DNA of 64,000 bases from a virus. Its lineage: Duplodnaviria; Caudoviricetes. Position 1 is the stretch's first letter, and each line of letters starts with the position of its first letter. The DNA is taken from positions 32,001-96,000 of IMG/VR virus record IMGVR_UViG_3300033121_002193; one strand, written 5' to 3'. The notes below the pieces were generated by a model. It saw nothing but the letters and a program-made list of their open reading frames with translations. It made no database searches and was not told the origin of the DNA. Positions 6,059-27,295 of this stretch are shown piece by piece. A program made the position numbers and the translations under genes.

Positions 6059-6089
6059 TTTTTTTTACCTCTATAATTAAATATAATTA

Positions 6090-6578: not shown

Positions 6579-6597
6579 AAATTAAATCCTTTTAAAA

Positions 6598-9465: not shown

Positions 9466-9492
9466 AAAAATATCCTATGAAAGTTTAATAAT

Positions 9493-9500
9493 AGATTAAG
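9493..9500 (-). promoter_or_regulatory. Candidate late promoter motif CTTAATCT
   Basis: About 28 nt upstream of the sheath start. Confidence 0.55.
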
Positions 9501-9734
9501 TTATATACCAAAATGTTTACAACAAAATTCCCATTTTTCTGGCGTGTCTAAAAAACCCATTGTCTGAATGTGTAATTTAACGGGTTCTTTCCATTCTTGT
9601 TTAATATTATGTGTTTTTGCATAATACATGAAAAAATCATCAAAATTATAAAACATAATGGCAGGTTGTGTGTTTTCAACATTTATTTGATTTTCTTCTG
9701 TAAAAACCAGGTCATCTTTTTTCTTAAAAGCCAT
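9501..9734 (-). CDS. Small protein upstream of sheath
   Basis: ATG at 9734 with AGAGG RBS; same position as the ~70 aa pre-sheath gene of K-like phages. Confidence 0.6.
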   Translation of the reverse strand: MAFKKKDDLVFTEENQINVENTQPAIMFYNFDDFFMYYAKTHNIKQEWKEPVKLHIQTMGFLDTPEKWEFCCKHFGI

Positions 9735-9757
9735 ATTCAAAATTCCTCTTGTGAAAT

Positions 9758-9765
9758 AGATTAAG
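9758..9765 (-). promoter_or_regulatory. Candidate late promoter motif CTTAATCT
   Basis: About 24 nt upstream of the 9734 start. Confidence 0.5.
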
Positions 9766-10699: not shown

Positions 10700-10700
10700 A

Positions 10701-11477
10701 TTATTCTAATAGATTAATTCTTATTAATTGCTCTGTTATGATTTTTAAATAATTTTCCAAAATCCATGAAAATACTTCATCTAAAATTTTAACACCTTTA
10801 AGTTCTGGAATATCCCAGCCTTTTGAGTTCTTGTTTAGTGTTCTAAAAGTCATAATTGTTTTTTGAACGCTTTTCCCTTTAGGGGTTTTTGTTTCATGTT
10901 GATAAATGGTCAAATTATTTAAAATGCTTTTTCCTGTTTGTTTGCTTTTGAATTGTGATGGCACATCGGTAATGATGGCAGCAGGTATTATTTTTTTAAC
11001 TGTACTAATAACAGGCACCCCTTGCGTATTTGTAATTGGATTTTTTAAACTTATTTTTTCTTTTTTTAAGGTGTTTTTTATTTCATTATAAATCACTTGT
11101 TGTTTTGAACTCATTAAACTTGGAATATTTTGATTGTGTTTAAATGGAATAACAACAGAATTTCTATTCTTTAAATGTGTTTTTTTTAAGTTATGTGCGG
11201 GTACGCCTTCTTCAATCCAAGTTGCTTTATCTCTTAAAACAATAATATATACTGGATTTTTTTTACTTTTTGGCTTTTCTAAGATTAAATTTTCAAGATA
11301 TAAATTCCTAGTAGTTCTTAATTTATTTTGTGCTAATCTAACTGCTTCGCTATAAGCTTGAACCGCAACAACATCTAAGGCGTTTAAAAAAATATTTTCT
11401 ATTCCTGAAATTTTAGAAAGCTGCTGTCTAAATTGATCAAAGTTTATATCAAGTTTAAAGCCGCTGTCATTTGCCAT
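10701..11477 (-). CDS. Probable neck/tail completion protein
   Basis: 258 aa basic; VVIPFKH and IMTFRTLNKNSKGW motifs; neck-module synteny. Confidence 0.55.
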   Translation of the reverse strand: MANDSGFKLDINFDQFRQQLSKISGIENIFLNALDVVAVQAYSEAVRLAQNKLRTTRNLYLENLILEKPKSKKNPVYIIVLRDKATWIEEGVPAHNLKKTHLKNRNSVVIPFKHNQNIPSLMSSKQQVIYNEIKNTLKKEKISLKNPITNTQGVPVISTVKKIIPAAIITDVPSQFKSKQTGKSILNNLTIYQHETKTPKGKSVQKTIMTFRTLNKNSKGWDIPELKGVKILDEVFSWILENYLKIITEQLIRINLLE

Positions 11478-11481
11478 AAAA

Positions 11482-11790
11482 CTATTCAGCTGAGGTTTGT
11501 GTTTGAATTTCTTCTTTTAATTCTTGATCTTTTTCAACTTCTTTATCTGTTTTTAAAACACCATTTTCTAATAAAATTTGTGCTAAATTAATCATGCAGG
11601 AAGCTAATTCTAATAATGATTCATACGCATTAGGATTTGTTACTTGTATCATTTCAAATGCCGGCAAATGATTTTTAAAATTATTTAATACAGTTTCAAT
11701 ATCAGAAACTTTATTTTTAAAATCATAAACATTCAATCTTTTTATAGAATTGTCCATTGTATTTGCTGATGCTTCTATATTATCTTTCAT
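11482..11790 (-). CDS. Hypothetical protein
   Basis: 102 aa ORF, tightly packed in operon. Confidence 0.55.
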   Translation of the reverse strand: MKDNIEASANTMDNSIKRLNVYDFKNKVSDIETVLNNFKNHLPAFEMIQVTNPNAYESLLELASCMINLAQILLENGVLKTDKEVEKDQELKEEIQTQTSAE

Positions 11791-11792
11791 GT

Positions 11793-12503
11793 TTATTTAA
11801 TTTCCCCCTTTTTATTCCACAAAGCTTTCAATAACAAAGAAATATTTTCTTTGCTCCATTTATCGCTAAATAACACTTTTATATTTTCATTATTATCTTT
11901 GTAAATATGTAAACTGTTTTTTCCTAAAATTTTAAAACATATACACAGACGTTTGTGTTCTGGATTTAAAATAATAGATTCTTGACAATCTGGACAAGTA
12001 TATTTATCTTCTGTTTTATTTAATTTTATTTCTATTTTTTTTTCTGGGAAAAAGTTATTGTTTACAAGAAGATTAACTGTTTTTTGTAAGGATTTATTTA
12101 AATTTGTATCTAAATTAAATACACTTTCATTAAAAGTTGACTCTAACGATAAACACGTGGCTAGTACATTTGGCATGTCTTTATTATCAATAAAAGCAAT
12201 TGTTTGTTCGTTTTTAAACAATCTCCCACAAAACAAATCTTTTTCTTTTTTAATAATCTCTAATTGATATTCCATTGATGGAATCTTTAAAATAATCGGC
12301 ACATTTGAATTTTTTAAGTTTTTCAAACTTTTCGAGAGCCAATAAGAAATTCCACGCGGAACAATTTGCATTTGTTCTAAATATTCTTCTGTATTTTCTT
12401 TATTAACGTTAGGCAAGGATAAAACAGCCTTTTTTAAAATGCAATATCCTTTATTGCCTACCAATTCTTCTATTTTTTCATTATATGTTTTTTTGTTTAG
12501 CAT
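11793..12503 (-). CDS. Hypothetical protein with CxxC..CxC zinc-ribbon-like motif
   Basis: 236 aa; CPDC...LCIC. Confidence 0.55.
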   Translation of the reverse strand: MLNKKTYNEKIEELVGNKGYCILKKAVLSLPNVNKENTEEYLEQMQIVPRGISYWLSKSLKNLKNSNVPIILKIPSMEYQLEIIKKEKDLFCGRLFKNEQTIAFIDNKDMPNVLATCLSLESTFNESVFNLDTNLNKSLQKTVNLLVNNNFFPEKKIEIKLNKTEDKYTCPDCQESIILNPEHKRLCICFKILGKNSLHIYKDNNENIKVLFSDKWSKENISLLLKALWNKKGEIK

Positions 12504-12541
12504 TTATCATGCTCCGATCATTACAATATAAGTATAAGTTT

Positions 12542-13375
12542 CTATTTAATAGACAAATTCATTCCTGAACTAGGAGACAACCCCTCTCTGGATGAATCAT
12601 CTTCTGCCCTATTTAATTCATTTAAATAGTAAATTTCTCTTTGTAAAATTAATAGTTGAGGGTATCTAACTTGTATTTTTTCAGAAGATTGAGGAATAAC
12701 CGTATTACACAATCTTATTTCGTGTAATACAACGCTAACATACCAAGATGGTCGATAGTAATATCTTATTTGATAAACTCCGCCATCTCCAGTAGATTGA
12801 ATATATTGTGGTCTATTTTGACCAATCCATTGTAAGTTGCCGCCAGAAATAACAAAATCACTTCCCTCAAAATATTCCTTTCCATTCATATCAATAACAT
12901 ATTCTATTTTTACAATTGGAAACATTGCTCTATCAATTCCAGTAGGCGAACAAATCATTTTTTCAAATCTAGGAACTACTACGGTTTCATCTACCAAATC
13001 AATTCTATCGTTTACACAGAAAAACAATTGACAATCGCTTTCTTTATATTGTCTAGGTACGTGTAAAGTAGTTATAGAAGAATCAATTATACCTTCTACA
13101 TTGAAATATTTTTTAGTGCTATTATTATCAAATACACCTAAAAAACATTTTCCACCTCTATAATAAAAACCATTACTACAAGTATGATTTAAATGAGATG
13201 AACGTGGGCTGCCTCGATCGGTATCGCCCCCTGCGCACGGAACCGCTTTCCAATGTTTAAAATCAACTCCATGCGCTTCTATCAAATTATCAAAAGCAAA
13301 AGGATCAAAATACAATTGATCTTGTGCAAATTGCAATGGATTTTCTATATAATTCCCTCTAGTTGCCATCATCAA
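12542..13375 (-). CDS. Probable head closure/stopper protein
   Basis: 277 aa; FDNLIEAHGV..WKAVPC..CSNGFYY resembles the K-like neck protein; synteny. Confidence 0.6.
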   Translation of the reverse strand: MMMATRGNYIENPLQFAQDQLYFDPFAFDNLIEAHGVDFKHWKAVPCAGGDTDRGSPRSSHLNHTCSNGFYYRGGKCFLGVFDNNSTKKYFNVEGIIDSSITTLHVPRQYKESDCQLFFCVNDRIDLVDETVVVPRFEKMICSPTGIDRAMFPIVKIEYVIDMNGKEYFEGSDFVISGGNLQWIGQNRPQYIQSTGDGGVYQIRYYYRPSWYVSVVLHEIRLCNTVIPQSSEKIQVRYPQLLILQREIYYLNELNRAEDDSSREGLSPSSGMNLSIK

Positions 13376-13577
13376 TCCATTTTATGTTGTTATATTTTTT
13401 ATCTGCCATATATTTAGCGATTTCTTTATGAGATCCAGCGCCTAATATTTCTGTTTTGTTTTTATTAGAAAAAAACAAAACATTAAATCCGCCAAAAGTT
13501 ACAACTAAATCTATAGGCAAATTATTCATATACCCAATTGTCTTTTTTAATTTAATATGTTTTTGAGTTATTTTCAT
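13359..13577 (-). CDS. Hypothetical protein
   Basis: 72 aa ORF in operon. Confidence 0.45.
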   Translation of the reverse strand: MKITQKHIKLKKTIGYMNNLPIDLVVTFGGFNVLFFSNKNKTEILGAGSHKEIAKYMADKKYNNIKWIDDGN

Positions 13578-13582
13578 AATTT

Positions 13583-14416
13583 TTAAAAAGTAGACATCAT
13601 AATTGAATTATAATACATCATTCTAATATTTTTAATTAATTCGTCTCTTTTTTCCTTTAAGTCATTAATTCTAAGTGCATATATATTAGGTCCTGGACTG
13701 CCAATTGATTGACTCATTCCATCTAAGCCTAAACTTGAACTTGTTGTTCTTACAAGTGGGCCTAATCTGGATAATAAATCTATAGCGGCTTCCGTGGCGA
13801 TTAAATCATTAATAATTCCTGGCATTTTATCTTCAGGAAATCCGGCTGTATATTTTATAGAGAAAAATGCGGGAATAAATCTAGGATACACATTTGCCAA
13901 TAACCAATTACCAAACGGGCTAGCTACGCCATTTGCACTAAAAAAAGAATTTGTATAAACATTAGTAACATATCCCAACGTAATTAAACCTGTTTGAAAA
14001 TTTCCTGTCTCTATTAATGTAGGTGGAAAAACAAAAATATTAGTACCGGTAGCATCCGCAATCGCAAGCTCTTCTACTGATAAAATCGGACGATAGGGCA
14101 TTTCTAAATAACAATAGGCTTGATACAAATTTTTATCATATTCTTTCCTAACTTTTCTTTGAACAGGAAATATATTTATTTTTATTTCTGTTTCTATGCG
14201 ATTCATGGCATAGTCTAAAGTTCTTTTTAGGTCTTCATTGTTCAAAACTTCGCCTGTAATAGGACTTTTTAAACTAATTCCAAACAAATAATCTTTTTTG
14301 AAAATTTCAGGAGTAATAAGAGGTTGATACCTGTTAACATTTGCGCCTGCATCAATTGCATATAAAGGATATACACAGCCCATAGATGGACGACTATTTG
14401 TATAATCTGCACTCAT
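13583..14416 (-). CDS. Probable head-tail adaptor/neck protein
   Basis: 277 aa; YLFGISL..PITGE and IKYTAGF..SLGLDGMSQS motifs of K/SPO1-like adaptors. Confidence 0.7.
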   Translation of the reverse strand: MSADYTNSRPSMGCVYPLYAIDAGANVNRYQPLITPEIFKKDYLFGISLKSPITGEVLNNEDLKRTLDYAMNRIETEIKINIFPVQRKVRKEYDKNLYQAYCYLEMPYRPILSVEELAIADATGTNIFVFPPTLIETGNFQTGLITLGYVTNVYTNSFFSANGVASPFGNWLLANVYPRFIPAFFSIKYTAGFPEDKMPGIINDLIATEAAIDLLSRLGPLVRTTSSSLGLDGMSQSIGSPGPNIYALRINDLKEKRDELIKNIRMMYYNSIMMSTF

Positions 14417-14417
14417 A

Positions 14418-14822
14418 TTAACACAAACTCGGGTTTAAAGATTGTACGGTAATAGCCCTAGAAATAACACCAGTTTTTACAATTCCGTTTTCTGTTAATG
14501 AAAACATTAAATTTCCTTGTGATATTTTATCTGTAGACAAAATATTGAATTGCCAAATACTTGCATCTAAAGGAAATGGTTGAGTAGCGTTTCTTGTGAT
14601 TACATTTGTGCTATTAATACTTGAAATTGTAATCGTCACTGTAGAACCTACGGCAGGCATATATCTTAATCCTTGCCCATTGGTTAAATCAGAGGCTTGT
14701 TCGTCGTCAGTTAATTGAAAATAAACAGATGTACTGCTGCCTTCTCTTAATAAAACAGCAGTAGCTACCTGCCAACTGTTGACATTTTGTACGTTTTTTA
14801 ACATTCTGCCACTAAGAAACAT
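14418..14822 (-). CDS. Putative virion structural protein (Ig-like)
   Basis: 134 aa beta-rich; first gene of the neck/tail operon; late motif upstream. Confidence 0.5.
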   Translation of the reverse strand: MFLSGRMLKNVQNVNSWQVATAVLLREGSSTSVYFQLTDDEQASDLTNGQGLRYMPAVGSTVTITISSINSTNVITRNATQPFPLDASIWQFNILSTDKISQGNLMFSLTENGIVKTGVISRAITVQSLNPSLC

Positions 14823-14879: not shown

Positions 14880-15577
14880 ATGAAAAAAACAAAATGTACG
14901 TTTGTTGTTATAGATGGAATAAAATTGGAAAAGATACTCAAATAAATCAATTGAAAAATTATTTTTCCTCAAAAAACAAAACATATCTTTCTATTGATTG
15001 TATTGGATGGTCTCAACATAAAGATTTTATTCATTTGAAAGTTTTAAGAGAATTAATTTTTAATGCAAAAGAATTATCATCAAAATTAGAAGAAAAAACT
15101 TTTGCACTGGCTTCTTTTTTGAATTTACAAATAGTACAAAAATTAAAGGAAACTAATGAGTATGAATATATACTACAAAATAGAGGTCCTTTAAGCCATA
15201 TTGCTTATGGCTTAACGAAAAATCATTCTCGTAAACAATTAAATACTTATTACAAACAAGTAAATGAAATTTTGAACAATTTTAAGGCAAACTATATTAA
15301 TATTTGCTTGTTACCAAGAAATTTTGAATTATTTATAAAACAAAGAATTGATTTGGCAAAAAATAAACATAAAGAAATAAGTGCAAGACATGAAAAGCTA
15401 GAAAACATTGATTTTCAAAAAAAAGTATACTACAATATGTTAAATGAATTTAAATTAGCAAAAATGAATAAATCTTATTTTTTGCAAAAAGATAGCTGTA
15501 AAATGTTATTAATTGAAGAAAATTCTTCAATTGAAGACGTGAAAAAACAAATAATAAGCATAATAGAAAAGGAATAG
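14880..15577 (+). pseudogene. tmk: Thymidylate kinase, frameshifted in the P-loop
   Basis: ATG at 14880 reads MKKTKCTFVVIDGI; another frame continues KIGKDTQINQL..QNRGPLSHIAYG..HEKLENIDFQKKV. Confidence 0.65.
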
Positions 15578-15579
15578 AA

Positions 15580-16125
15580 ATGGATTTTTATATGGTAAAA
15601 CGATTTTTTTATAATTTACTGAACAGATTTAAAGGCACAAATTATAATGAATATAAATGTAAAAATTGCGAATATGATATTTTAAGTTTGAAACAAGAAG
15701 TTTCTTTTGTTAAACTAAACACAGAAGCTAAAGCACCGTTTAAAAAACACGAGGGCGATGCAGGATACGATTTATTTGCCAATTTACCAGAAAAACAAAG
15801 TATTACAATCGAACCAAATGACCAAGCAAAAATACCAACGGGAATTGCGGTATCTTTGAATAAATGTACAGTAGGAATAATTAACGATCGTTCTAGTATG
15901 GCATTTAAAAAACAAATTGTGACTGGTGGAGTTATTGATGAGCCGTACACGGGTGAAATTTCTGTTTTATTGTTTAATTTATCAAAAGAACCATATAAAA
16001 TAAATCATGGTGATAAAATAGCACAAATGGTCATTTTTCCAATTGTGCAAGCAACTTTTATTGAAAAAGAATCTCTGCAAGAAACTGAGCGTGGCAACAA
16101 TGGCTTTGGAAGCACTGGAACCTAG
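15580..16125 (+). CDS. dut: dUTPase (trimeric)
   Basis: DAGYDL, RSS, GVIDEPYTGEI, GDKIAQ and RGNNGFGSTG motifs. Confidence 0.95.
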   Translation: MDFYMVKRFFYNLLNRFKGTNYNEYKCKNCEYDILSLKQEVSFVKLNTEAKAPFKKHEGDAGYDLFANLPEKQSITIEPNDQAKIPTGIAVSLNKCTVGIINDRSSMAFKKQIVTGGVIDEPYTGEISVLLFNLSKEPYKINHGDKIAQMVIFPIVQATFIEKESLQETERGNNGFGSTGT

Positions 16126-16642
16126 ATATATTTTTTTATATATAAGTTCTCCAGAACCTGAAATTAGCGCAGAAATATTTGATAATAAAGACACAATAAA
16201 CAAAGTAATTGTAGCTTGTGTGATTTTTTTGAATAATGCCATTATACTCAATGGCGGTTTTCGATTTAACAAATATATAGCTGTTAAACACGAAAATAGC
16301 AAAGGTTCTTTATGGGTAAGACAGACTAGAAATAATTATAGATGGACATGTACATATTTAAAAATTTTACTAAAAAAATTCATTGAAATTACAAACAAAC
16401 CACATCATTACAATCATGCTTATGAATGGTTTTTAAAATATACACATTTGATTCCTGTTGGTAAATTAACTGATTTTGTAAATGACACCAACTATACTAA
16501 ATTAGAATCAACAGAGGCAAACAAAACATACATATTGAAAAAATGGTTTTGCGAGAATGTTAACCTAATTCTTGAAAGTAATCAGCTTACAGACACAGAT
16601 ATGCAAAAAATAGATTTTCTATACAAAAACATTTCTTTGTAA
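16043..16642 (+). CDS. Pyrimidine-dimer glycosylase (DenV)-like phage protein, divergent; true start likely near 16125
   Basis: IFLYISSPEPEISA..KHENSKGSLWVRQTRNNYRW..KPH resembles the HxNHPxxxWxRxxxxNYxW family. Confidence 0.45.
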   Translation: MCKQLLLKKNLCKKLSVATMALEALEPRYIFLYISSPEPEISAEIFDNKDTINKVIVACVIFLNNAIILNGGFRFNKYIAVKHENSKGSLWVRQTRNNYRWTCTYLKILLKKFIEITNKPHHYNHAYEWFLKYTHLIPVGKLTDFVNDTNYTKLESTEANKTYILKKWFCENVNLILESNQLTDTDMQKIDFLYKNISL

Positions 16643-16714
16643 TGTGAAAAGAAAACAATTGATATTGCAAAAAAACATGATACACTATTAACAACAAACA
16701 AGGAAACCACAAAA

Positions 16715-16954
16715 ATGAAATTCCTAATAAAAATAACTTTTAATATAATAATAAACCAAGAATATCAATACGTAGAACATTTTTGTTCTTCTTACGAAGA
16801 CATAGATGATAAATTAAACTTGTTTGATGGTAATAAAGATATTTTGTGTGTCTTCAATAAATCAGCTGTTTTAAAATACGAAGTCGAAACAATAGAAGAA
16901 GAACCACAAACAATAATAAAATCAACAAAAAGAAAATCAAAACTTTCCACTTAA
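16715..16954 (+). CDS. Hypothetical protein
   Basis: 79 aa, RBS AAGGA upstream. Confidence 0.55.
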   Translation: MKFLIKITFNIIINQEYQYVEHFCSSYEDIDDKLNLFDGNKDILCVFNKSAVLKYEVETIEEEPQTIIKSTKRKSKLST

Positions 16955-16967
16955 TAAAAGAAAATAT

Positions 16968-17603
16968 ATGAATATTGTTTTTAAAGCGATAATCAATCAC
17001 AAATATTGTGATTTGCCAATGACTCATACAGACTTGGAAATAAAAGGAATTTATCAGCAATCTAATGAAGATATTCTTGGGCTCAATTACAAAGAAAAAA
17101 TAAGCCTTATAGAAAAAGAGAGTTATTTTGAAATTGGTTATTTCTTAAGCAAATTAATAGAAGGCGTTCCAGAATTTGTTGAATTATTGTTTTTGCCAAA
17201 AAATCAAATATTGCAAATTTCAAAAGTCTTTCATGAAATTATGCATTTCAATCATGTGTTTTTAACCAAACGTTCTATAGAAAAATTTTTAACTAGAGCG
17301 TTGAGCTATTCTACTGATTATATCATAACAAAAGACAATTTGTGTTTATTTCAATCAATAAGAATGCTTAAAATATGCAAAAATTTATTAGAAAAAAACA
17401 CAAATGATTTTTTAATTAATAATCAATTTGATTTCAATCGTCCTCATATTACAGATATTATTATTCAAGAAGTTAATTTGTTATATAAACAATTAAATTT
17501 GTCAGATTTTCCAGATGAAGTTGATAAAAACTTTACGCATACTCTTCTTTTATCTATTAGAAACGAATATGGTAATTTTTTAGAAGATAAAACAAATGAA
17601 TAA
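16968..17603 (+). CDS. Pol-beta superfamily nucleotidyltransferase-like protein with degenerate active site
   Basis: KGIYQQSNEDILGL..YFEIGYFL..PEFVELLF matches phage NTases; GS and DxD replaced by NH and DLE. Confidence 0.55.
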   Translation: MNIVFKAIINHKYCDLPMTHTDLEIKGIYQQSNEDILGLNYKEKISLIEKESYFEIGYFLSKLIEGVPEFVELLFLPKNQILQISKVFHEIMHFNHVFLTKRSIEKFLTRALSYSTDYIITKDNLCLFQSIRMLKICKNLLEKNTNDFLINNQFDFNRPHITDIIIQEVNLLYKQLNLSDFPDEVDKNFTHTLLLSIRNEYGNFLEDKTNE

Positions 17604-17655
17604 AACAAGAAATAAATTAACTTTATCCGATGCATTAAATGAACAATTTAATTTA
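17596..17655 (+). pseudogene. 5' part of a gene interrupted by the IS1595 element
   Basis: MNKTRNKLTLSDALNEQFNL joins in frame to IQGLIVG.. at 23655 once the IS and one TSD are removed. Confidence 0.8.
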
Positions 17656-17704
17656 GGCACCTATATACTTGTTTAACCCAAAATAATTTGATATAAAAAC
17701 CGTT

Positions 17705-18622
17705 ATGGAATTCACGAATCTCATAGAAGTGACTGAATACTTTTCAGACAAGCAGAAATGCATTGAGTATTTGACTCACATGAGATGGGCCAATGGTGTG
17801 CAATGTGTTTTTTGTGCCAATGAAAAAGTTTACGAATTAAAAGGTGAAAACAAGCGATACAAATGTGCCAAGTGCAGGAAGCAGTTTTCAGCCATTAAAG
17901 GCACCATTTTTGAAAACAGCCCAATTTCTCTGCAAAAATGGTTTTTGGCGGTTTACATTCTCACGTCTTATAAAAAAGGCATCAGCTCTGTTCAATTAGC
18001 CAGTGATTTAGGTGTGACTCAAAAAACCGCCTGGTTCATGGCTCAAAGAATCAGGTATGCCTTAAAAGTAAAATCCTTTGATTCACAATTAGAAGGCCCT
18101 GTCCAATGTGACGAAACGTTTATAGGCGGCAAAAATAAGAACAGGCATGCTGATAAAAAGGTACCTGAATCACAGGGTAGAAGCCTCAAAGACAAAACGC
18201 CTGTTTTTGGTGTTTTACAAACAGGTGGCCAATTGCATACGTCTGTCGTGCCAGATACCAAAGCTTCCACGTTAAAACCCATCATTAAAGAGCTGGTTAG
18301 AAACGGTTCTATTATTGTCACTGATGAGTGGACTGCTTACCAAAACCTGTCAAAAGATTACGATCACGTTGTCATTAATCACAAAAAACGTGAATATGTT
18401 AAAGGTGTACATCACATCAACGGCATAGAAGGGTTTTGGAGCGTCTTTAAAAGGGGTATTTACGGAATTTATCACCAAGTAAGCCCTAAACATTTGCACC
18501 GTTATTGTGATGAATTTGCGTTTAGGTACAACACCAAAAATTTGAACAACACCTGCAAATTTGATCTGTCATTAAAACGGACAGACTGCAGGTTGACCTA
18601 TAAGAACTTAATCTCTAAGTGA
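17705..18622 (+). CDS. IS1595-family transposase
   Basis: Zn ribbon CVFC..CAKC; QKTAWFM HTH; DETFIGG, TDEW, NGIEGFW and EFAFRYN motifs. Confidence 0.95.
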   Translation: MEFTNLIEVTEYFSDKQKCIEYLTHMRWANGVQCVFCANEKVYELKGENKRYKCAKCRKQFSAIKGTIFENSPISLQKWFLAVYILTSYKKGISSVQLASDLGVTQKTAWFMAQRIRYALKVKSFDSQLEGPVQCDETFIGGKNKNRHADKKVPESQGRSLKDKTPVFGVLQTGGQLHTSVVPDTKASTLKPIIKELVRNGSIIVTDEWTAYQNLSKDYDHVVINHKKREYVKGVHHINGIEGFWSVFKRGIYGIYHQVSPKHLHRYCDEFAFRYNTKNLNNTCKFDLSLKRTDCRLTYKNLISK

Positions 18623-18674
18623 GATGAATATTTATTTTTAAAATATTTTTTAGGAAAAATTTAAACTAGCCAGT

Positions 18675-20672
18675 ATGTCACAAGTGAAAGATAATTCCCC
18701 ACTCAATTTAAATTTGGCGTCTCATGATGTTCTTGCTGAGCGTATTGAGAAACTAAAAGCGTTAATGCCCGAAGTTTTTACCGAGGGCAAGATTGATTTC
18801 GATCAGCTCAAACGATTCTTGGGTGAATGGGTTGAGCCCGGCAAAGAACGCTTTGGCCTGCAATGGCCTGGTAAAGCTGATTGTATAAAGATCATCCAGC
18901 AAACCAGCGTTGCCACACTGAAACCCTGTCGAGAAGAATCCGTCAACTTTGATGAAACAGAAAACGTATTTATTGAAGGTGAAAATCTTGAAGTTTTAAA
19001 ACTTTTACAGAAGGCCTACTTTGGCAAGATCAAAATGATATACATTGATCCGCCTTACAATACAGGCAAAGAATTCATCTATCCCGACAAATATTCTGAA
19101 ACGCTCGAGTCCTACCTTGCTTATACTGGCCAAGTTGATGATGAAGGGAAAAATTTTTCAACTGATAAAGACGCACAGGGACGTTTTCATACACGTTGGC
19201 TAAACATGATGTATCCACGTCTGCTTCTTGCGCGAAATTTACTCAGAGAAGATGGAGTGATTTTTATCTCTATCGATGACAATGAATTCAGTAATCTTGA
19301 AAATTTATGTAATGAAATCTTTGGTGAAGAAAATCACTTAACAACACTTCATATAAAGGTCAGGTATGAGGGTAAAACATTGGTAGAAGATATGGATTTT
19401 CAAAAGCTTGTTGAGCAAGTTTTAGTCTACGCAAAATCAAAGGCGCAGGTTAAATTGAACAAGCCGAGAAGTTCATACTCTTTTGATAAATTCAGATACA
19501 AAATCATTGAAAAAGGAGTTCCTAAAACAATTAACCTTGGCGGAAAAAAAGTAGAGATATTTTCTAGCAGCCAATTTGAAATTATAGATGCTGGCCCTTC
19601 TAAAGAAAATCTCAAAGAAATATGGGCTTCAGGAAAGATTTTGGATGGGAATTCATCTGGCAGGTTTTTCCGGGATTATCTATCCGGAAGAAGTGAAACC
19701 GACGGCTTAGGTGTACTTTATAAAGTACACGAGATAGGCAGTGATAATCTGTCGTATAGGTACTTTACAGGACCGAAGAGAGAGAGTGCTACAAAGGGAA
19801 GATATTATCAAGGTGTTCCATCGGATGTATTAATTGAAGAGCGGACTGAGCGGGCAATGCCAATAACAACGTTTTATGACTTCGCTGACAACTTTGGAAA
19901 TTGTAGACATGAGGGAAATATAGATTTTCGTGACGGGAAAAAACCCGTCGAATTTTTAAAAACTCTTATCAATTTGATCCATCATGATTCTGATGAGATA
20001 CTGTTGGACTTTTTCGCTGGTTCGGGATCGTTCGCGCATGCAGTATTAGATTTTGCCCAGGAACACGATCTTCGACTCAAGACTATTTCTATACAATTAC
20101 CGGAACCTCTTAAAGAAGAAGGTGAAAGTTCTAAAATTGGCTTTAAGACCATAGCAGATATAGGTAAAGAGCGTTTCCGTAGGGTTATCGGCAAATTGGC
20201 GAACAGCCTTGATGGGCAATTACGATTCTCGAAAAATAAATTTGATCTTGGTTTTAAAGTTTTCAAGCTTGATCGATCCAATTTCAAAATTTGGGAGCAT
20301 CATTCGGAAAAAGCCGACAACTTTGTTGAGCAACTCTCCCTATATGTAGATCATATTGATCCCCAAAGTACCCCTGAAGCTCTCCTTTACGAATTACTCC
20401 TTAAATCGGGCTTTCCACTGACTGCGACGGTTAACCAAATCACCTTGGCGGGCAAACAGGTTTTCTCAATTGATAGTGGCAAGATGTTGCTGTGTTTTGA
20501 GGATCCGATCAAAGAAGAAACCCTTTTAGAGATGCTAAAGCATCAGCCTGCAATAATGGTTGCACTTGATAAGGCCTTTCATGGCAACGATCAGTTAAAA
20601 ACTAACATTAAGTTACAAGCTGAAGCCATAGGTGAATCTGAACACGGCCGAGTGTTATTTAAGACGGTATAA
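18675..20672 (+). CDS. mod: Type III R-M methyltransferase Mod
   Basis: IYIDPPYNTG and LDFFAGSGS motifs; GENLEVLKLL. Confidence 0.93.
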   Translation: MSQVKDNSPLNLNLASHDVLAERIEKLKALMPEVFTEGKIDFDQLKRFLGEWVEPGKERFGLQWPGKADCIKIIQQTSVATLKPCREESVNFDETENVFIEGENLEVLKLLQKAYFGKIKMIYIDPPYNTGKEFIYPDKYSETLESYLAYTGQVDDEGKNFSTDKDAQGRFHTRWLNMMYPRLLLARNLLREDGVIFISIDDNEFSNLENLCNEIFGEENHLTTLHIKVRYEGKTLVEDMDFQKLVEQVLVYAKSKAQVKLNKPRSSYSFDKFRYKIIEKGVPKTINLGGKKVEIFSSSQFEIIDAGPSKENLKEIWASGKILDGNSSGRFFRDYLSGRSETDGLGVLYKVHEIGSDNLSYRYFTGPKRESATKGRYYQGVPSDVLIEERTERAMPITTFYDFADNFGNCRHEGNIDFRDGKKPVEFLKTLINLIHHDSDEILLDFFAGSGSFAHAVLDFAQEHDLRLKTISIQLPEPLKEEGESSKIGFKTIADIGKERFRRVIGKLANSLDGQLRFSKNKFDLGFKVFKLDRSNFKIWEHHSEKADNFVEQLSLYVDHIDPQSTPEALLYELLLKSGFPLTATVNQITLAGKQVFSIDSGKMLLCFEDPIKEETLLEMLKHQPAIMVALDKAFHGNDQLKTNIKLQAEAIGESEHGRVLFKTV

Positions 20673-20682
20673 GGAATTTAGA

Positions 20683-23412
20683 ATGAAAATTAAATTTGAT
20701 GCCTCCCAACAATACCAGCTCGACGCTATTCAATCAGTTGTAAATTTGTTTAATGGCCAACCTATGGCCGGGCAGGAATTTAGAATCAACTCCGTGTTCG
20801 GTTCGTTAAGCATGCCGCACTCCGCACTTGGCTTTGGTAACCGCCTGATTTTGTCAGATGCTAAGCTATTGGAAAATCTTCATGCCGTGCAAGCAAAAAA
20901 TGGTCTTAACCTCTCAGAAAAACTTTTAGGAGAGAGTGTCGAATACGACGCCCAAAATCTCGAATATCGGCTTACCAGCAACGCCAGAGAGAATGGCTGG
21001 TGTGTTCCACATTTTTCCGTTGAAATGGAAACGGGCACAGGCAAGACTTATGTTTATTTACGTAGTATTTTTGAGTTGCATAAAAATTATGGTTTTACCA
21101 AGTTCATTATCGTTGTGCCGACTGTGGCGATTCGTGAAGGCGTTAAAGCCAGTATTGACCTCACAGCTGAACATTTCAAAACGCTTTACGACAACACTCC
21201 ACTCAATCATTGGATTTATGATTCCAAATATGCTTCACGCTTACGTGATTATGCTGCTAGCAATCAAATTCAAATTCTAATCATTAATATCGATGCTTTT
21301 AATAAAAAGGATATCGCAGTCATCCATAACGAACGCGATCAGACATCGGGCAGGAAACCTATTGAGTTTATTCAAGCATGTAATCCTATCGTTATTATTG
21401 ACGAGCCCCAAAATATGGAGTCCGAGATCGCTAGACGAGCGATTACCAGTCTCAATCCGCTTTGTACACTACGCTATTCTGCAACTCACCTTAATCCGTA
21501 CAATGTTGTTTATCGGCTTGGACCTGTAAAAGCCTACGATTTAGGCTTGGTGAAGCGGATCGAAGTTAATTCTATCCTAGAAGAATCCAATTTCAGCAAA
21601 CCTTTTATTCATGTGCAGAGCATACAAAATACCAGCAAGAACAAGATTGTTGCCAAGTTGATTGTTGACGTTGAAGAAAAATTAGGACCACAGCGCAAAA
21701 CCATCAAGGTTGAAAAGCGTGGCGATGACCTTCATCAACTGACAAAGCGTGAGGCTTATAAAGGTTATTTCGTTGAAGAAATTCGTACTGACTATAAAAT
21801 CATTTCCTTCTCCAACGGTGTGACTCTCACAGAAGGACAAATTCACGGCGAACGAATTGATGATCGCTTGCGTATCCAAATTAAGGAAACGGTTAAGGAA
21901 CATTTTGAAAAAGAACTTTATATTTCTAAGCTATCCGAAAGCCAACGACTCAAAGTGCTATCGTTATTTTTTATCGATCGTGTATCAAATTATCGTTTAG
22001 ATAATGGAGGTAAAGGCAAAATCGCCCTTTGGTTTGAAGAAGCTTACGAAGAACTCCGCCATCATGACCGCTATAAATTCTTAGATTTGCCCTCAGTCGA
22101 CAAGGTTCATGACGGATATTTCGCTCAGGATAAAAAAGGCAATTATAAGGATTCGAGGGAAACCACTGAAAATCAGGAAGATCGCGATACTTATGTTGTT
22201 ATCATGAAGGATAAGATGCGTTTGTTGTCCTTTGCTGAGCCATTAAAATTCATCTTTAGTCATAGCGCGCTGCGCGAAGGTTGGGACAATCCTAATGTCT
22301 TTCAGATTTGCACGCTAAATGAAACACGTTCTGAGTTTAAAAAGCGTCAGGAAATTGGCCGTGGCCTCCGTCTTCCTGTGCGAGTGAATGGAGAGCGCTG
22401 TTTTGATAACGTTATTAATCGCCTTACTGTTATTGCCAACGAAAGTTACGATGATTTTGCACGTAACCTGCAAACTGAAATCGAAAAAGAAACGGGTGAG
22501 AAATTTGAAGGACGCATTAGAAATGTGCGGAGTCGCCGACGCGTCCAACTTAAAAAAGGGTGGCGTTTGGATCAGAACTTTGTTGAAATCTGGAATCGTA
22601 TTAAGCACAAAACACGTTATGCAGTTAGGTACTCAACTGAAGAACTTATCGAAAAGAGCGCTAAAGAACTATCCAAGAGCAAACCTATCTCTACTCCTAA
22701 ATTTACCATTCGCAAAAGCGAAATTATTACTACAAAGTCAGGTTTAGAGACTGAACTGCGCTCAGCTCGTGAAGAATTTATTGAATATTTTCACACTCAA
22801 GTTCCTGATTTAATTGGTTACCTTCAATCAAAGACAGAATTGACTCGTGGGACTTTAGCTAAAATCATTATTGAATCAGGACGTATTTCGGAAATTCACA
22901 AAAATCCTCAAAAATTCTTAGAACAAGCCTTAGAAGCCATCCAGCGAACATTGCGCAAGCTTATGGTTGACGGCATTAAGTATGAAAAAATTGATGGTGA
23001 TGAGTATGCAATGATGTTGTTTGAAGAACATTATGAACACAAGGAAATTTATAGTTATCTGGATCGTTTGATAGCTGTTGATCATTCAATTGTTAATTAT
23101 CTTGAATACGAATCAGAAATAGAGAAAAATTTTGCTGAGGCGTTAGATAAGCGTTCTGATATTAAATTGTTTTTCAAATTGCCTAGATGGTTTTTCGTTA
23201 AAACGCCCCTAGGAAATTACAATCCAGATTGGGCCATTGTGAAAGAAGAACAGGGTAAGTTTTTTAAATTATACCTCGTACGTGAAACAAAAGGAAAAAC
23301 AAGCAAGTCTGAATTACGCTCAAGTGAAGAGATGAAAATTGATTGTGGTTCTGCACACTTCAAAGAATTGAATGTCGATTTTGGCTGGATAGAAAATGCA
23401 GAGCAAATTTAG
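20683..23412 (+). CDS. res: Type III R-M restriction endonuclease Res
   Basis: EMETGTGKT, IIDEPQ, REGWDNPN, QEIGRGLR, YNPDWA..ETKG; ATG at 20683 with AAGGA RBS. Confidence 0.93.
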   Translation: MKIKFDASQQYQLDAIQSVVNLFNGQPMAGQEFRINSVFGSLSMPHSALGFGNRLILSDAKLLENLHAVQAKNGLNLSEKLLGESVEYDAQNLEYRLTSNARENGWCVPHFSVEMETGTGKTYVYLRSIFELHKNYGFTKFIIVVPTVAIREGVKASIDLTAEHFKTLYDNTPLNHWIYDSKYASRLRDYAASNQIQILIINIDAFNKKDIAVIHNERDQTSGRKPIEFIQACNPIVIIDEPQNMESEIARRAITSLNPLCTLRYSATHLNPYNVVYRLGPVKAYDLGLVKRIEVNSILEESNFSKPFIHVQSIQNTSKNKIVAKLIVDVEEKLGPQRKTIKVEKRGDDLHQLTKREAYKGYFVEEIRTDYKIISFSNGVTLTEGQIHGERIDDRLRIQIKETVKEHFEKELYISKLSESQRLKVLSLFFIDRVSNYRLDNGGKGKIALWFEEAYEELRHHDRYKFLDLPSVDKVHDGYFAQDKKGNYKDSRETTENQEDRDTYVVIMKDKMRLLSFAEPLKFIFSHSALREGWDNPNVFQICTLNETRSEFKKRQEIGRGLRLPVRVNGERCFDNVINRLTVIANESYDDFARNLQTEIEKETGEKFEGRIRNVRSRRRVQLKKGWRLDQNFVEIWNRIKHKTRYAVRYSTEELIEKSAKELSKSKPISTPKFTIRKSEIITTKSGLETELRSAREEFIEYFHTQVPDLIGYLQSKTELTRGTLAKIIIESGRISEIHKNPQKFLEQALEAIQRTLRKLMVDGIKYEKIDGDEYAMMLFEEHYEHKEIYSYLDRLIAVDHSIVNYLEYESEIEKNFAEALDKRSDIKLFFKLPRWFFVKTPLGNYNPDWAIVKEEQGKFFKLYLVRETKGKTSKSELRSSEEMKIDCGSAHFKELNVDFGWIENAEQI

Positions 23413-23419
23413 AAAACCC

Positions 23420-23557
23420 ATGAAAACCCAAACCAAACACCCATCTAAAAAATCCAGCAAATTGTCTGCTTTTGAAGCAGCCATGATTAAAATTGCTCAG
23501 ACTCCTAAAAAAGACGTTGAAAAAGCCATTGCTCAAGATAAGAAAAAGAAAAACTGA
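23420..23557 (+). CDS. Small basic IS passenger protein (45 aa)
   Basis: MKTQTKHPSKKSSKLSAFEAAMIKIAQTPKKDVEKAIAQDKKKKN, inside the IS near its right end. Confidence 0.45.
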   Translation: MKTQTKHPSKKSSKLSAFEAAMIKIAQTPKKDVEKAIAQDKKKKN

Positions 23558-23654
23558 AGGACTTGAGATCTGGGAATTTTTGGTTTGATTTGAATTTGTT
23601 TTGAATAGTCTGTTTGATAATTGGGTTAAACAGGTATGTAGGTGCCTTAATTTA

Positions 23655-23942
23655 ATTCAAGGATTAATAGTCGGAATAAATCCGCAAGAGACTATATGGA
23701 TTTGCACTTGTTGTAATCAAATTCATAAACCTATTGATGTATGTGCTTTAGCTCCTCGTGGATTATATAACTTGTACAAAAAAGAAAAAAGAGAAATTTG
23801 GGAGAATTTTTCAAATGCTTACAGTACATCAAATAATAATGAATTATGGTGTCTTTCTTGTGCTCCTAAGAACAAAAAAATAAAAGTAAAATCTATTGTT
23901 TTGAGTTTTTTATTTGTTTTTTTTCAAAAAAATATTGATTAG
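23655..23942 (+). pseudogene. 3' part of IS-interrupted Cys-rich (zinc-finger-like) gene
   Basis: WICTCC...WCLSC; in frame with 17596-17655. Confidence 0.75.
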
Positions 23943-24001
23943 TATTTCAATAATTGCTAACTATTTTCTTAACAATAAAGCTGAATAAATGGAGATGAAA
24001 A

Positions 24002-24280
24002 ATGTTTAAAGATAATGAAGATAAGAATAAAATTTTCAGTATAAACGAACTAAAAGATAATTTATATAAAGAACTAAATTGTAATAAAGATAACTTACAA
24101 ATAAGTTTTTCGTTTCCAAAAACACAAGAAACAAAAATTACTTTTAAAGGCTTGATTTCAGAGTTGAAGAAAGTACAAAATCATTTTTTTTTAAAAAAAA
24201 CATATCAAACCATGGAAATTAATTTTACAAAAGGAAAAAACTCAAAAGAAAATTTTCTTATTGTTAAGAAAAAAGCATAG
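24002..24280 (+). CDS. Hypothetical protein
   Basis: 92 aa, GGAG RBS. Confidence 0.55.
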   Translation: MFKDNEDKNKIFSINELKDNLYKELNCNKDNLQISFSFPKTQETKITFKGLISELKKVQNHFFLKKTYQTMEINFTKGKNSKENFLIVKKKA

Positions 24281-24289
24281 CGAAAAAAA

Positions 24290-24649
24290 ATGAAAAGCGA
24301 AAACATAAAAATCAAAAAAGGAATTTTTACAAAAAAAGACCTTGTAAAATGGTTGGTGCAAGATAATGTTCATTTAAATTTGCACGAAATAAAAACTTTT
24401 GCAACATCTTTTATAGATGCTTTAGAATATGGAATTTTAAGCGGCAAGAGAGTTTATTTGCCTAAAATTGGTATTTTTTCTTTGCAAAATTATGTTAGTA
24501 GAAAAAAATTGCCAATGGAACTTAATTCCGATAAAATAGAAACAGAACAGTCTATAAAAATAAAATTTGAACCGTCTTCGTATTTAAAAGCAAAAGCGAG
24601 AAAAAACAAAAAACGACATTTAGATCAAAAAAGGAATTTCAATGTTTGA
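24290..24649 (+). CDS. HU/IHF-family DNA-binding protein
   Basis: TKKDLV..GKRVYLPKIGIFSL..IKFEPSSYLK pattern. Confidence 0.75.
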   Translation: MKSENIKIKKGIFTKKDLVKWLVQDNVHLNLHEIKTFATSFIDALEYGILSGKRVYLPKIGIFSLQNYVSRKKLPMELNSDKIETEQSIKIKFEPSSYLKAKARKNKKRHLDQKRNFNV

Positions 24650-25148
24650 TTTACAAATAAAAATTTTAGAACAAGTATTTGATTCAAGTAATAAATGGAC
24701 GATTCCGTTTATTTTACCAGAACTCAATCAAAAAACTGGATTGGATAAATACAATATTCAAGCAGAAATGTGTACAAACTTAGATGAAACTTTTTACGAG
24801 TTTTTAATTAAACTTAATACACATCCGCTTCCAACACATCCAGAAATTCAATTTGACCATTGTTTAAAACAAGAGTTGTTAAATAAATATCAAATTGATG
24901 TTTTTGCTCAAAACTATATTGATTTTAATCTATTTTTAGTTGATGATATAAAAAGAGGAGATACTTTATATAAAAACAAATTTGAAAGACCGCATGCTTT
25001 TTTTATAAGTGCTTTGAAAAGAATTGAGTTTTATTACAATAAAGGATTTCAAGATTATAGACTTTTATTCTTTTTTAAAAAACCAATAATCAATATTAAA
25101 AATGATAATTCTATACTATCGCAAACAGATCAATATTCTTTATTTTAA
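24642..25148 (+). CDS. Hypothetical protein
   Basis: 168 aa ORF overlapping the previous stop. Confidence 0.55.
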   Translation: MFDLQIKILEQVFDSSNKWTIPFILPELNQKTGLDKYNIQAEMCTNLDETFYEFLIKLNTHPLPTHPEIQFDHCLKQELLNKYQIDVFAQNYIDFNLFLVDDIKRGDTLYKNKFERPHAFFISALKRIEFYYNKGFQDYRLLFFFKKPIINIKNDNSILSQTDQYSLF

Positions 25149-25208
25149 AGTAAATAAAGAATACGTTATAACGCTGAATTTTTTTTTGATAAAATATTAG
25201 GAGATAAT

Positions 25209-26762
25209 ATGATTAAAATACTATGTTTGTTTGTTTCTTTTTTTCCGTTTTGTATATTTGCCAATGAAGTAAATTTTCAAAAATTAAATTTGAATTCAAT
25301 TGATTACAACCAACCACTAATTATTAAAAAAGAAGACAGAATAGCAAAAGAAAGACATGATAGTTACGTTGGTTTTGGTTTTTGTAACAAAACAACTAGA
25401 TTTACAAGTGTTGCTGATTTACAAAACATAACAGATGCAATAACAGTCATGTTTGCACCACTTTTTAGTTCTGTAAATATCAACGGAAATATATTTACTC
25501 CAGTTGAAACAAAAAGTATTATAACTCAAGAATTAGATTTAAAAAAATGGCAAGATTTAAGCTCCATTGGAGACTTTAATTCATATCTTAGTTCTGATTT
25601 TTCGTTTTCTAAATTGCCATATAATGGAACAAAAATATTATCTAGATTTATTGGCTATTGGAATGTTAAAATTCCAATCGAAGGTACAATTGGGTTAAAT
25701 TCAGATGATGGCGCTTTAATTATTTTAGGGAATCAACCTTTTATATATTCTGCTGGTTTAAATCCAGGGAAAAGGCTAACAAGAAAATATAAATTCGAAT
25801 CTAGTGGTTTATATCCTGTTTATGTTTTTTATTATCAAAATTTAAACTCTTCCTATTTAGAAGTAAGCGACTTACTCGGTGAACCAACAAATAATAATTT
25901 CATGTTTGGAGAAACAGATATTCCATTAAACTTATTAGAAAATACAACTGTAATAAACGAAGATGGCAGCTATGCAAAAATGGAAATATTTGGAAATGAA
26001 AATATTTACACAACTATTATAGACCAACCACCATATACTTGTGAAATGTGTAATTATGACAGCGACTGTACTGTTGGAAATAAATGTTTATATGGTTTGT
26101 GTCAAAATATAAAACAAGTATGTGTTACTACAGATTTTTGTGGTAATAATTGTCAAGCTTGTCCAGTCGGAAGTAATGTGTGTGTAGACGGAAAATGTAT
26201 AGAATGTAATCAAGACTCAAACTGTTTTTTAAATCAGATATGTAAAAACAATAAGTGCATTCCAAAACCACCTGAATGCACTCAAGATATTGATTGTAAA
26301 TATACCTGGACGACAACTGAATATATTTGTAATAAAACATTGCTTAAATGCGAACTAAAAAAACCTGAATGCTCAATAAATACAGATTGTAAAGATAATC
26401 AAATTTGTAATTTGCAAAACAAATGCCAAGATAAAGTAGAAAATCCAATTTACAACTGCGATAAAGATGAAAATTGTATGTTAATACAATATTGCGATTT
26501 AACTTCAAAAATTTGTAAAAAATTGCCTCAAAACGGGTGTCGAATTCAATTACAATGCTTACAAAATTATACTTGCGATACTGCTGCACATTTATGTATT
26601 GAGAATAAAGATAATAAAACAGATGATTCAACAGAACAAAAGCCGAAAGCAATAGAAAACAAAGGTTGTAATCAATCGTCTTTAAATGGAAGTATAAATA
26701 TTCTCCTTGTTGCTTTTATTATATTCTATAAAAAAATAAAACATTTAACTATATTTACTTGA
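25209..26762 (+). CDS. TraA-like surface protein (signal peptide, PA14-like domain, Cys-rich repeats, MYXO-CTERM-like tail)
   Basis: SRFIGYWNV..NSDDGA..FESSGLYPVYVFYYQN..LEVS; CEMC..FCGNNCQAC..CIECNQDSNC repeats; KGC + hydrophobic + basic C-terminus. Confidence 0.7.
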   Translation: MIKILCLFVSFFPFCIFANEVNFQKLNLNSIDYNQPLIIKKEDRIAKERHDSYVGFGFCNKTTRFTSVADLQNITDAITVMFAPLFSSVNINGNIFTPVETKSIITQELDLKKWQDLSSIGDFNSYLSSDFSFSKLPYNGTKILSRFIGYWNVKIPIEGTIGLNSDDGALIILGNQPFIYSAGLNPGKRLTRKYKFESSGLYPVYVFYYQNLNSSYLEVSDLLGEPTNNNFMFGETDIPLNLLENTTVINEDGSYAKMEIFGNENIYTTIIDQPPYTCEMCNYDSDCTVGNKCLYGLCQNIKQVCVTTDFCGNNCQACPVGSNVCVDGKCIECNQDSNCFLNQICKNNKCIPKPPECTQDIDCKYTWTTTEYICNKTLLKCELKKPECSINTDCKDNQICNLQNKCQDKVENPIYNCDKDENCMLIQYCDLTSKICKKLPQNGCRIQLQCLQNYTCDTAAHLCIENKDNKTDDSTEQKPKAIENKGCNQSSLNGSINILLVAFIIFYKKIKHLTIFT

Positions 26763-26800
26763 CATAAAAATCATTTGTAGTATTCTTTGAATATAAGTTG
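26759..26800 (+). promoter_or_regulatory. Divergent copy of the early sigma70-type promoter cassette
   Basis: TTGACATAAAAATCATTTGTAGTATTCTTTGAATATAAGTTG, near-identical to the 41.5-46 kb repeats; upstream of the DUF2829 gene. Confidence 0.75.
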
Positions 26801-26861
26801 ATAGTTGAATAATCTAAACATCATTAAACAATACAAACAATAAATCAAAAGAGGCAAAGGT

Positions 26862-27116
26862 ATGAATTTTGGCGAAATATTAGAAAGTTTAAAAAAAGGG
26901 AACAGTGCGGCACGAATGGGTTGGAATGGAAAAGGTATTTTTATTGCAATACAACAACCCGATGAAAACAGCAAAATGACCGCTCCTTATATTTATATAG
27001 ATACAACAGGTCTTAAAACAGATAATATTTATTCGCCAAAAAAACTAGTTCCATGGTTTGCTAGCCAAACAGATATATTAGCAGAAGACTGGTTTGTTGT
27101 AAAAGAAGAAGATTGA
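26862..27116 (+). CDS. DUF2829 / Tad2-like anti-defence sponge protein
   Basis: MNFGEILESLKKG..ARMGWNGKG..PWFASQTDILAEDW signature. Confidence 0.85.
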   Translation: MNFGEILESLKKGNSAARMGWNGKGIFIAIQQPDENSKMTAPYIYIDTTGLKTDNIYSPKKLVPWFASQTDILAEDWFVVKEED

Positions 27117-27184
27117 TTTAGATTACAAAGAATATGATTATTGCCGGCCATTTATAACTTCTCAAAAAGACTACGATTGTCTTG

Positions 27185-27223
27185 TCAAACATGGACAGCT
27201 TTATTAAAGCTGTCCATGTTTGA
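27185..27223. terminator. Perfect 18-bp hairpin between convergent genes
   Basis: TCAAACATGGACAGCTTT-ATT-AAAGCTGTCCATGTTTGA. Confidence 0.65.
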
Positions 27224-27295
27224 TTCAAGTCTGCTGATTTGTACCTAAACAATTATGTCTCATTTTAAGGTGAAACTGCGACATAATACTTAAAT

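Follow-up and report, generated by a model that had tools for sequence, protein, structure and literature searches.

The stretch of DNA analysed here, referred to as the window, comprises 64,000 nucleotides (nt; positions 32,001 to 96,000) of the 135,485-base IMG/VR record IMGVR_UViG_3300033121_002193, which is assigned to a tailed phage (Duplodnaviria; Caudoviricetes) and is estimated to be 84% complete. The window contains on its plus strand an intact open reading frame (ORF) of 517 amino acids (aa) at 25209-26762, which an initial annotation had placed at exactly these coordinates and read as a phage-encoded receptor of the TraA type. TraA is the outer-membrane-exchange and kin-recognition receptor of Myxococcus xanthus (NF033759; PMC3325183, PMC12045341) and serves as the reference throughout. 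Profile, motif and tree comparisons indicate that the window protein is not canonical TraA but a distant, shortened TraA relative. The gene is organized as follows.

25199..25203, plus strand: Shine-Dalgarno (SD) sequence AGGAG, 5 nt ahead of the ATG, read off the sequence
25209..25265, plus strand: Sec-type signal peptide, aa 1-19 (MIK, hydrophobic core, IFA/NE junction), from hydropathy; the head starts at 25266
25266..26033, plus strand: TraA-family N-terminal head, aa 20-275, with a predicted PA14-type lectin fold and DD at 166-167, from AlphaFold2 (AF2), Foldseek and profiles
26034..26603, plus strand: Cys-rich stalk, aa 276-465, 30 Cys in about six C-x2-D-x2-C-x5-C-x4-6-C units
26604..26663, plus strand: polar low-complexity linker, aa 466-485, with AF2 pLDDT <50 over 469-497
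26664..26762, plus strand: tripartite C-terminal tail, aa 486-517, and stop codon; G-C487-N-Q, spacer, membrane helix 497-512 and Lys cluster

All the parts named in the initial annotation, from the signal peptide and PA14-like head to the Cys-rich stalk and the Cys/hydrophobic/basic tail, were found within 25209-26762. Hydropathy reaches its maximum at residues 1-19, and an N-terminal hydrophobic leader is present in all eight phage copies (the window protein and seven relatives, P0001-P0007) as well as in the cellular relatives. Cys15 was considered as a lipoprotein Cys and rejected, as it has no lipobox and is not conserved. The head of ~255 aa carries the motifs RFIGYWNV, NSDDG and GLYP..YYQN, which match cellular TraA-family motifs column for column. 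After residue 59 no Cys occurs until residue 278, from which 30 Cys follow over 278-463 at a spacing of 3-11 residues; at the DNA level the stalk contains an internal repeat (26252-26304 and 26345-26397). Across 26 aligned phage and cellular sequences, 15 stalk Cys positions are invariant, as is Cys487 (26/26), and the eight diverged phage copies retain Cys487 together with 25 of the 30 stalk Cys positions. Linker identity among the phage copies is merely 5-20%, P0001 excepted. The tail shows a hydropathy peak at 498 with K-K-I-K-H following the hydrophobic helix, so that the tripartite design of the MYXO-CTERM type (invariant Cys, membrane helix, basic C-terminal cluster) is present, with a Lys/Arg cluster in all phage copies. 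A leader, many Cys and a C-terminal helix are combined in only one of the 172 scanned ORFs of the genome, the TraA-like ORF. Signal-peptide-like N-termini occur in two other phage ORFs, at window 43982-44476 (+) and at 34-627 (+) of genome C1, the second with a lipobox-like ...IISC; neither protein has a Cys tail.

The window protein is homologous over its head and stalk to cellular Myxo_TraA_N proteins, as judged from profile alignment. Comparison of the phage family with nine such cellular proteins by hhalign gave a probability of 100% and an E value of 1.4e-52 over 372 columns that span both head and stalk. The first match in the ESM Atlas is a TraA cluster (0.96, 203 shared features), whose 229 members are 100% Myxo_TraA_N and belong to Myxococcota, and precomputed matches to PF27866 (Myxo_TraA_N) exist for the homologues P0001 (weak), P0003, P0004, P0005 and P0006. 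The TraA-family architecture claimed at the outset is borne out by the hhalign, ESM Atlas and weak TraA-model matches, and neither the hhalign E value nor the invariant Cys positions can be put down to chance.

Identity with TraA as an orthologue does not hold. The window protein scores 23.5 bits (E 1.8e-5) on NF033759 (exchanger_TraA), far below the cut-off of 750 bits, with residues 277-363 aligned to the Cys-repeat region 420-505 of the model; the control, canonical TraA P0148, scores 1149 bits. The TraA N-terminal domain model TIGR04566 gives 16.4 bits (E 0.0057) against a cut-off of 80. The SCNCCP motif in the distal stalk, described as invariant in TraA (PMC12045341), is found in P0148 and P0135, while no phage, short or fused sequence has it; neither the window protein nor any other phage copy contains a CC dipeptide. 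For the Myxo Cys-rich repeat the signs are mixed: with TIGR04201 (cut-off 25 bits) the window protein gives no match when E values up to 1 are allowed and the homologue P0005 reaches 21.8 bits, and the C-x2-D-x2-C-x5-C-x4-6-C pattern nevertheless recurs about six times in the segment that includes the residues aligned to the repeat region of NF033759.

An AF2 model was built with the 26-sequence alignment (mean pLDDT 82.7). The head is mostly modelled at pLDDT >90 and the stalk as a chain of short β-hairpins at 80-93, followed by a disordered segment (residues 469-497) and the terminal helix (497-512). The top 40 Foldseek matches for the head are PA14 adhesin or glycosidase domains, including the Ca-dependent lectin adhesins Epa6, Epa1, Epa9, Flo1, Flo5 and Cea1 and the PA14 domain of the RTX adhesin MpIBP, with E between 3.7e-7 and 1e-4 and TMt no higher than 0.68; a PDB profile search of the head returned an RTX-adhesin PA14 domain at E 1.1e-4. 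The modelled head has the PA14 β-sandwich fold, with the Asp pair 166-167 aligned with the DD of the TraA family. At the sequence level the Pfam PA14 model (PF07691) gives E 0.14 and 12.4 bits against a cut-off of 24. PA14-domain proteins are common in uncultured tailed phages; the fold by itself is therefore unremarkable, unlike the complete head-stalk-tail plan.

Searches of 5.8 and 1.8 billion proteins returned only seven close relatives of the window protein, P0001-P0007. Those whose contigs were read all lie in phage-like DNA of 29-37% GC (P0007, on short contigs <2 kb, was left out). Below the close relatives the score falls from 210 to 97 bits; multi-PA14 giants come next, followed by N-terminal matches in proteins of 380-500 aa from contigs with 65-74% GC and by TraB/OmpA fusions. 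No cellular gene close to the phage clade was found among the 1.8 billion representatives, and tblastn of the window protein against 50,697 phage records gave no match. A search with the stalk and tail alone returned phage relatives only. Pattern matches to the family alignment in genome and viral contigs were not confirmed.

In a maximum-likelihood tree of 36 sequences, canonical TraA (P0148 and two near relatives) forms a group on a long branch, the short and fused cellular proteins form a clade with support 100/99, and the window protein and its seven relatives form a monophyletic phage clade (97/94) placed inside neither of these groups. The phage clade lies nearer to the short and TraB-fused cellular TraA-like proteins than to canonical TraA. 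The comparison with TraA alleles suggested in the initial annotation therefore did not attach the phage protein to canonical TraA or to any cellular clade. As the midpoint root was used for drawing only and three phage rows deviate in composition, the tree supports separateness and a single origin and does not point to a donor. On one related phage contig (L002, 4965-7982) a TraA-like gene of 458 aa stands in tandem with one of 520 aa; the stalk of the 458-aa protein is truncated, and the two copies are clearly diverged, with 34% and 43% identity to the window protein.

The gene has the base composition of its carrier phage, AT-rich as had been noted (27.7% GC; the window has 31.0% and the full 135 kb record 30.3%), which together with the monophyly of the phage clade marks it as an old resident. 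It is under purifying selection. Compared with the 87%-identical copy of the closest relative, L096, dN/dS is 0.135 for the whole gene, 0.12 for the head, 0.135 for the stalk and 0.055 for the linker and tail; the dN of the TraA-like gene is ~3x that of the neighbouring HU-like gene. Across the phage family identity is lower in the head (30-40%) than in the stalk (43-55%). Contigs from wastewater metatranscriptomes span parts of the gene with no mismatches (e.g. 25762-26145 and 26458-27171), at a depth as low as over the rest of the 16 kb covered, and may stem from DNA carry-over.

The carrier is, by its gene content, a large AT-rich phage related to Myxococcus phage Mx1, with the shared structural set of Mx1-like myoviruses. 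A PHROG major-head-protein match lies at 59338-60783, and among the 50,697 phage records the best match of this major capsid protein is Mx1 (OR576727.2; 44.6% identity, E 2e-104), with all other capsid matches near 26% identity. Colinearity with the first 91 kb of Mx1 extends to 24 ORFs at 24-49% identity, among them the genes of terminase, portal, prohead protease, capsid, tail sheath (6598-9465) and tube. These matches confirm that the element is a phage, and Mx1 is its closest sequenced relative. That part of Mx1 has 55-56% GC, in contrast to the 30% of the carrier, and the TraA-like gene was not found in Mx1. No tyrosine integrase was found in the carrier phage. The same DNA was recovered in wastewater, activated-sludge, river and seawater runs from 10 studies. 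A tRNA-Asn (GTT) at 47684-47758 (+) is the sole tRNA gene in the window, while Mx1 carries a large tRNA array.

The genes and sites around the TraA-like gene are the following.

24290-24649, plus strand: HU-like DNA-binding protein, Pfam Bac_DNA_binding E 2.7e-8
24642-25148, plus strand: conserved 168-aa protein, no family match, translation without a signal sequence
26759-26786, plus strand: promoter-like TTGACA-16-TATTCT at the stop codon of the TraA-like gene, heading the Tad2-like gene
26862-27116, plus strand: Tad2-like gene (anti-Thoeris sponge, anti-defence), Pfam E 6.3e-22
27185-27223, plus strand: perfect 19-nt palindrome (inverted repeat) behind the Tad2-like gene

The HU-like gene, the 168-aa ORF and the TraA-like gene lie on one strand with short gaps and no terminator-like site between them. 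The sole promoter candidate directly upstream of the TraA-like gene runs across its start codon, and shuffled sequence yields promoter-like sites at least as often; transcription probably continues into the gene from the HU-like gene. The order of HU, an ORF of 168-176 aa and the TraA-like gene recurs in L002, L007 and L096, and in L093 a 176-aa ORF precedes the TraA-like gene at the contig edge. Mx1-like tail genes occupy 1-14822 and head genes lie past 59 kb, so that the TraA-like gene, away from both modules, sits in a non-structural region. A wastewater DNA-run joint of 23650 to 27292, which skips the HU-like, TraA-like and Tad2-like genes, has a short side of 24 nt and no flanking repeat and was set aside as possibly another strain or an artefact.

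The neighbourhood has also been rearranged. Behind an IS1595-family transposase gene (17705-18622, plus strand; DDE_Tnp_IS1595, E 3.6e-50) lie Type III mod (18675-20672) and res (20632-23412) genes, and this block (17705-23412) sits between a dUTPase block and the HU/TraA-like module. In L096 the dUTPase and HU-like genes are contiguous and the IS1595/mod/res block is lacking, which indicates that the block was inserted in the window phage. In a comparison of window 14894-26762, with the conserved tail genes, a thymidylate-kinase-like gene and dUTPase as the orientation reference, the HU/168-aa/TraA-like module is reversed in the window phage and L096 relative to L002, L007 and L093, which points to an inversion between sublineages. 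The related phage contig L094 encodes at 200-3955 a DNA polymerase III alpha subunit with an intein (Intein_splicing between two DNA_pol3_alpha matches).

The initial annotation pointed to a Myxococcota-like host. The kinship with Mx1, the TraA family and the Cys tail do suggest such a host, and MYXO-CTERM has been reported only from Myxococcia, Polyangia and Bradymonadales. Base composition stands on the other side, as the carrier lineage has 29-37% GC, compared with 55-56% in Mx1 and 65-74% in the contigs of the cellular relatives. A search of GTDB genomes with the IS1595 transposase gave no host call, the best matches (56-57% identity) being mostly in Bacteroidota and spread over many phyla. 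SD-type tetramers precede 30% of the crudely called ORFs against a background of 5%. Since Bacteroidota make little use of SD sequences, this sixfold enrichment speaks weakly against a Bacteroidota host. Genome G001 ('uncultured delta proteobacterium') was considered as a Myxococcota entry and rejected: no TraA N-domain occurs in it or in 120 genomes of the same phylum, and its phylum is the wrong one.

The cleavable-type leader, the 30 stalk Cys and the terminal membrane helix together argue for export and extracytoplasmic oxidation, and hence for an envelope protein rather than a virion part. Infected cells probably display this phage-made contact protein. A surface or adhesion role is the most economical reading, and the likeliest explanation, with chances about even, is that the gene specifies an envelope adhesin of the TraA family, with ligand and effect putative. 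On this reading, Sec would export the protein during infection and its Cys would be oxidised outside the cytoplasm, while the C-terminal helix would first anchor the precursor in the inner membrane. In a host with a myxosortase-type pathway, the protein could then be lipidated at Cys487, cleaved and carried to the surface by type II secretion, as for TraA, whose type of tail is sorted by lipidation at the Cys, myxosortase and type II secretion (PMC11980579 and 10.1101/2023.06.07.544157). The head on its rigid stalk would bind a ligand of neighbouring cells or surfaces, either a glycan, at the Ca-type DD site, or the head of a second copy of the protein, and such binding would alter the sticking of the infected cell to its neighbours.

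The kin recognition and outer-membrane exchange of the initial annotation require TraB and a matching partner allele. As had been remarked for traB, NF033763 (TraB) finds no match in the window; nor does PF00691 (OmpA), and both models are equally without a match in the 135 kb record, which covers an estimated 84% of the genome. Neighbouring ORFs of the window phage and its relatives were considered as hidden TraB-like partners and gave no family matches. Because the phage brings no TraB, adhesion or contact is expected rather than full exchange of outer membrane, except where a compatible TraB comes from the host; with no matching allele on uninfected neighbours either, full exchange becomes less likely.

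Several observations weigh against the envelope-adhesin reading. No NCBIfam CTERM model, including TIGR03901, fits the tail at E up to 10 in a scan of the last 49 aa of four phage copies. No Rce1-like/CPBP protease is present in the phage record, and given the lack of both a fitting CTERM model and a phage CPBP protease, surface sorting depends on the host. At 30% GC the phage lies far from the 65-74% GC contigs that bear the cellular relatives. Three of the eight phage copies have other residues in place of the DD pair, which means that Ca-dependent glycan binding is not a constant of the family. Between close alleles the head shows no excess change, unlike a polymorphic recognition receptor.

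The main competitor, which we regard as unlikely, is superinfection exclusion or receptor masking, in which the envelope protein would bind the phage's own glycan receptor or an incoming tail tip. The protein would act at the surface or, should a sortase pathway be lacking, in the periplasm with an anchor in the inner membrane, and would keep further virions, or progeny set free onto debris, from going to waste. A lectin-type head with a DD pair, combined with a signal peptide and a membrane anchor, suits this role, as does the position beside an anti-defence gene and near a copy of an early-type promoter; the failure to find an integrase fits a lytic phage that needs protection for one cycle. 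Many exclusion proteins, such as Llp of T5 and Imm and Sp of T4, are small envelope proteins. Against this, the known exclusion proteins are small, a 517-aa head-on-stalk homologue of a cell-cell receptor exceeds the needs of masking, and nothing ties the head to the receptor of the phage.

We consider it distinctly unlikely that the protein is a true TraA-like homotypic receptor that pairs with a TraB-like protein of the host, so that infected cells of the same allele exchange outer membrane and form a kin group. The homology to the TraA family over the whole length and the presence of TraB-fused proteins in the nearest cellular clade would agree with this. So would the two diverged tandem copies in one related phage, as expected of specificity alleles, and the greater divergence of the head than of the stalk across the phage family. 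However, TraB and OmpA are missing from the 135 kb record, SCNCCP is absent and the protein is ~200 aa shorter than P0148 (732 aa); the allele is lacking on uninfected neighbours, no cellular gene lies near the phage clade among the 1.8 billion representatives, and the head dN/dS of 0.12 gives no sign of diversifying selection. A related idea, which we hold to be improbable, is a virus-borne 'greenbeard', by which infected cells of the same allele recognise each other or a TraB-type partner of the host and fuse or exchange outer membrane. If true, it would place TraA/TraB-type contact systems in a host lineage that is AT-rich, has so far escaped recognition and lies outside the high-GC myxobacteria.

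It is very unlikely that the protein is a decoy or dominant-negative form that engages host TraB or TraA, stops outer-membrane exchange and thereby blocks exchange-borne toxins of neighbours. A truncated family member without the distal stalk motif and without a partner could act in this way, and exchange passes SitA toxins between kin (PMC5562445); the idea is nevertheless purely inferential, and the good conservation of the head suggests that it binds something in its own right. A virion component, namely a PA14-bearing receptor-binding or decoration protein of the tail, is still less likely: PA14 domains are frequent in uncultured tailed phages and the gene of L094 borders on the tail module stop to stop, but it is convergent there rather than co-oriented with the tail genes, lies among HU, dUTPase and sigma-type genes in five other contexts, has full-length homology to cellular envelope proteins, and encodes a cleavable-type signal peptide, 30 stalk Cys and a C-terminal membrane helix that are alien to cytoplasmically assembled virions.

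Among bacterial kin-recognition receptors TraA is the one best understood, and its family has so far been regarded as a trait of Myxococcota chromosomes. Full-text searching of a literature collection brought up no paper that, judged by title or abstract, describes a phage-encoded TraA homologue; transduction has been proposed as a route of traAB allele swap (PMC10047993). A conserved, constrained and TraB-less clade in large AT-rich phages suggests that viruses can specify a cell-contact protein of infected cells, and offers an entry point to the effects of phages on the social and adhesive behaviour of their hosts. The protein may also serve as a natural minimal receptor (head, short stalk and tail) for structure-function work, and as a marker that may help to find the host.

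Compared with M. xanthus TraA, the phage protein has the same succession of a Sec signal peptide, a PA14 head with the DD and the GLYP..YYQN core, a Cys stalk, and a C-terminal invariant Cys, membrane helix and basic cluster. In contrast to canonical TraA it has 517 instead of 732 aa (P0148) and a Lys-rich instead of an Arg-rich tail, is encoded on an AT-rich phage without an adjacent traB, and lies a long branch away from TraA in the tree. Its nearest cellular relatives are short (~390-500 aa) and TraB-fused Myxo_TraA_N proteins from uncultured Myxococcota of high GC, among them P0012, P0026, P0156 ('Polyangia bacterium') and, as fused forms, P0029 and P0020, which were matched in profile searches at E 5e-17 to 1e-12. 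These proteins resemble the phage protein in length, in the head-stalk-tail plan and in the absence of SCNCCP. Unlike the phage copies, the cellular relatives lie on contigs of 65-74% GC and have Arg-rich MYXO-CTERM-like tails; several are fused to a TraB-like barrel and OmpA, and the phage copies share only 22-28% identity with them. Fusions of TraA-like protein, TraB-like barrel and OmpA in one ORF were seen at L008 872-3931 (P0029) and also in P0020, P0037, P0046 and P0160, and these high-GC cellular forms are scattered in the tree among short unfused ones.

The third comparison is with fungal and bacterial PA14 lectin adhesins. Flo5, Epa1/6/9, Cea1 and MpIBP are the best structural matches of the phage head and have, like it, two adjacent Asp at the Ca/sugar site. 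Identity is ~10-16%, the stalk is unrelated, the anchor chemistry differs and sugar binding by the phage protein is putative. The phage protein shares with them the logic of a head on a stalk with a C-terminal anchor, a parallel that has been remarked for TraA itself (PMC3325183).

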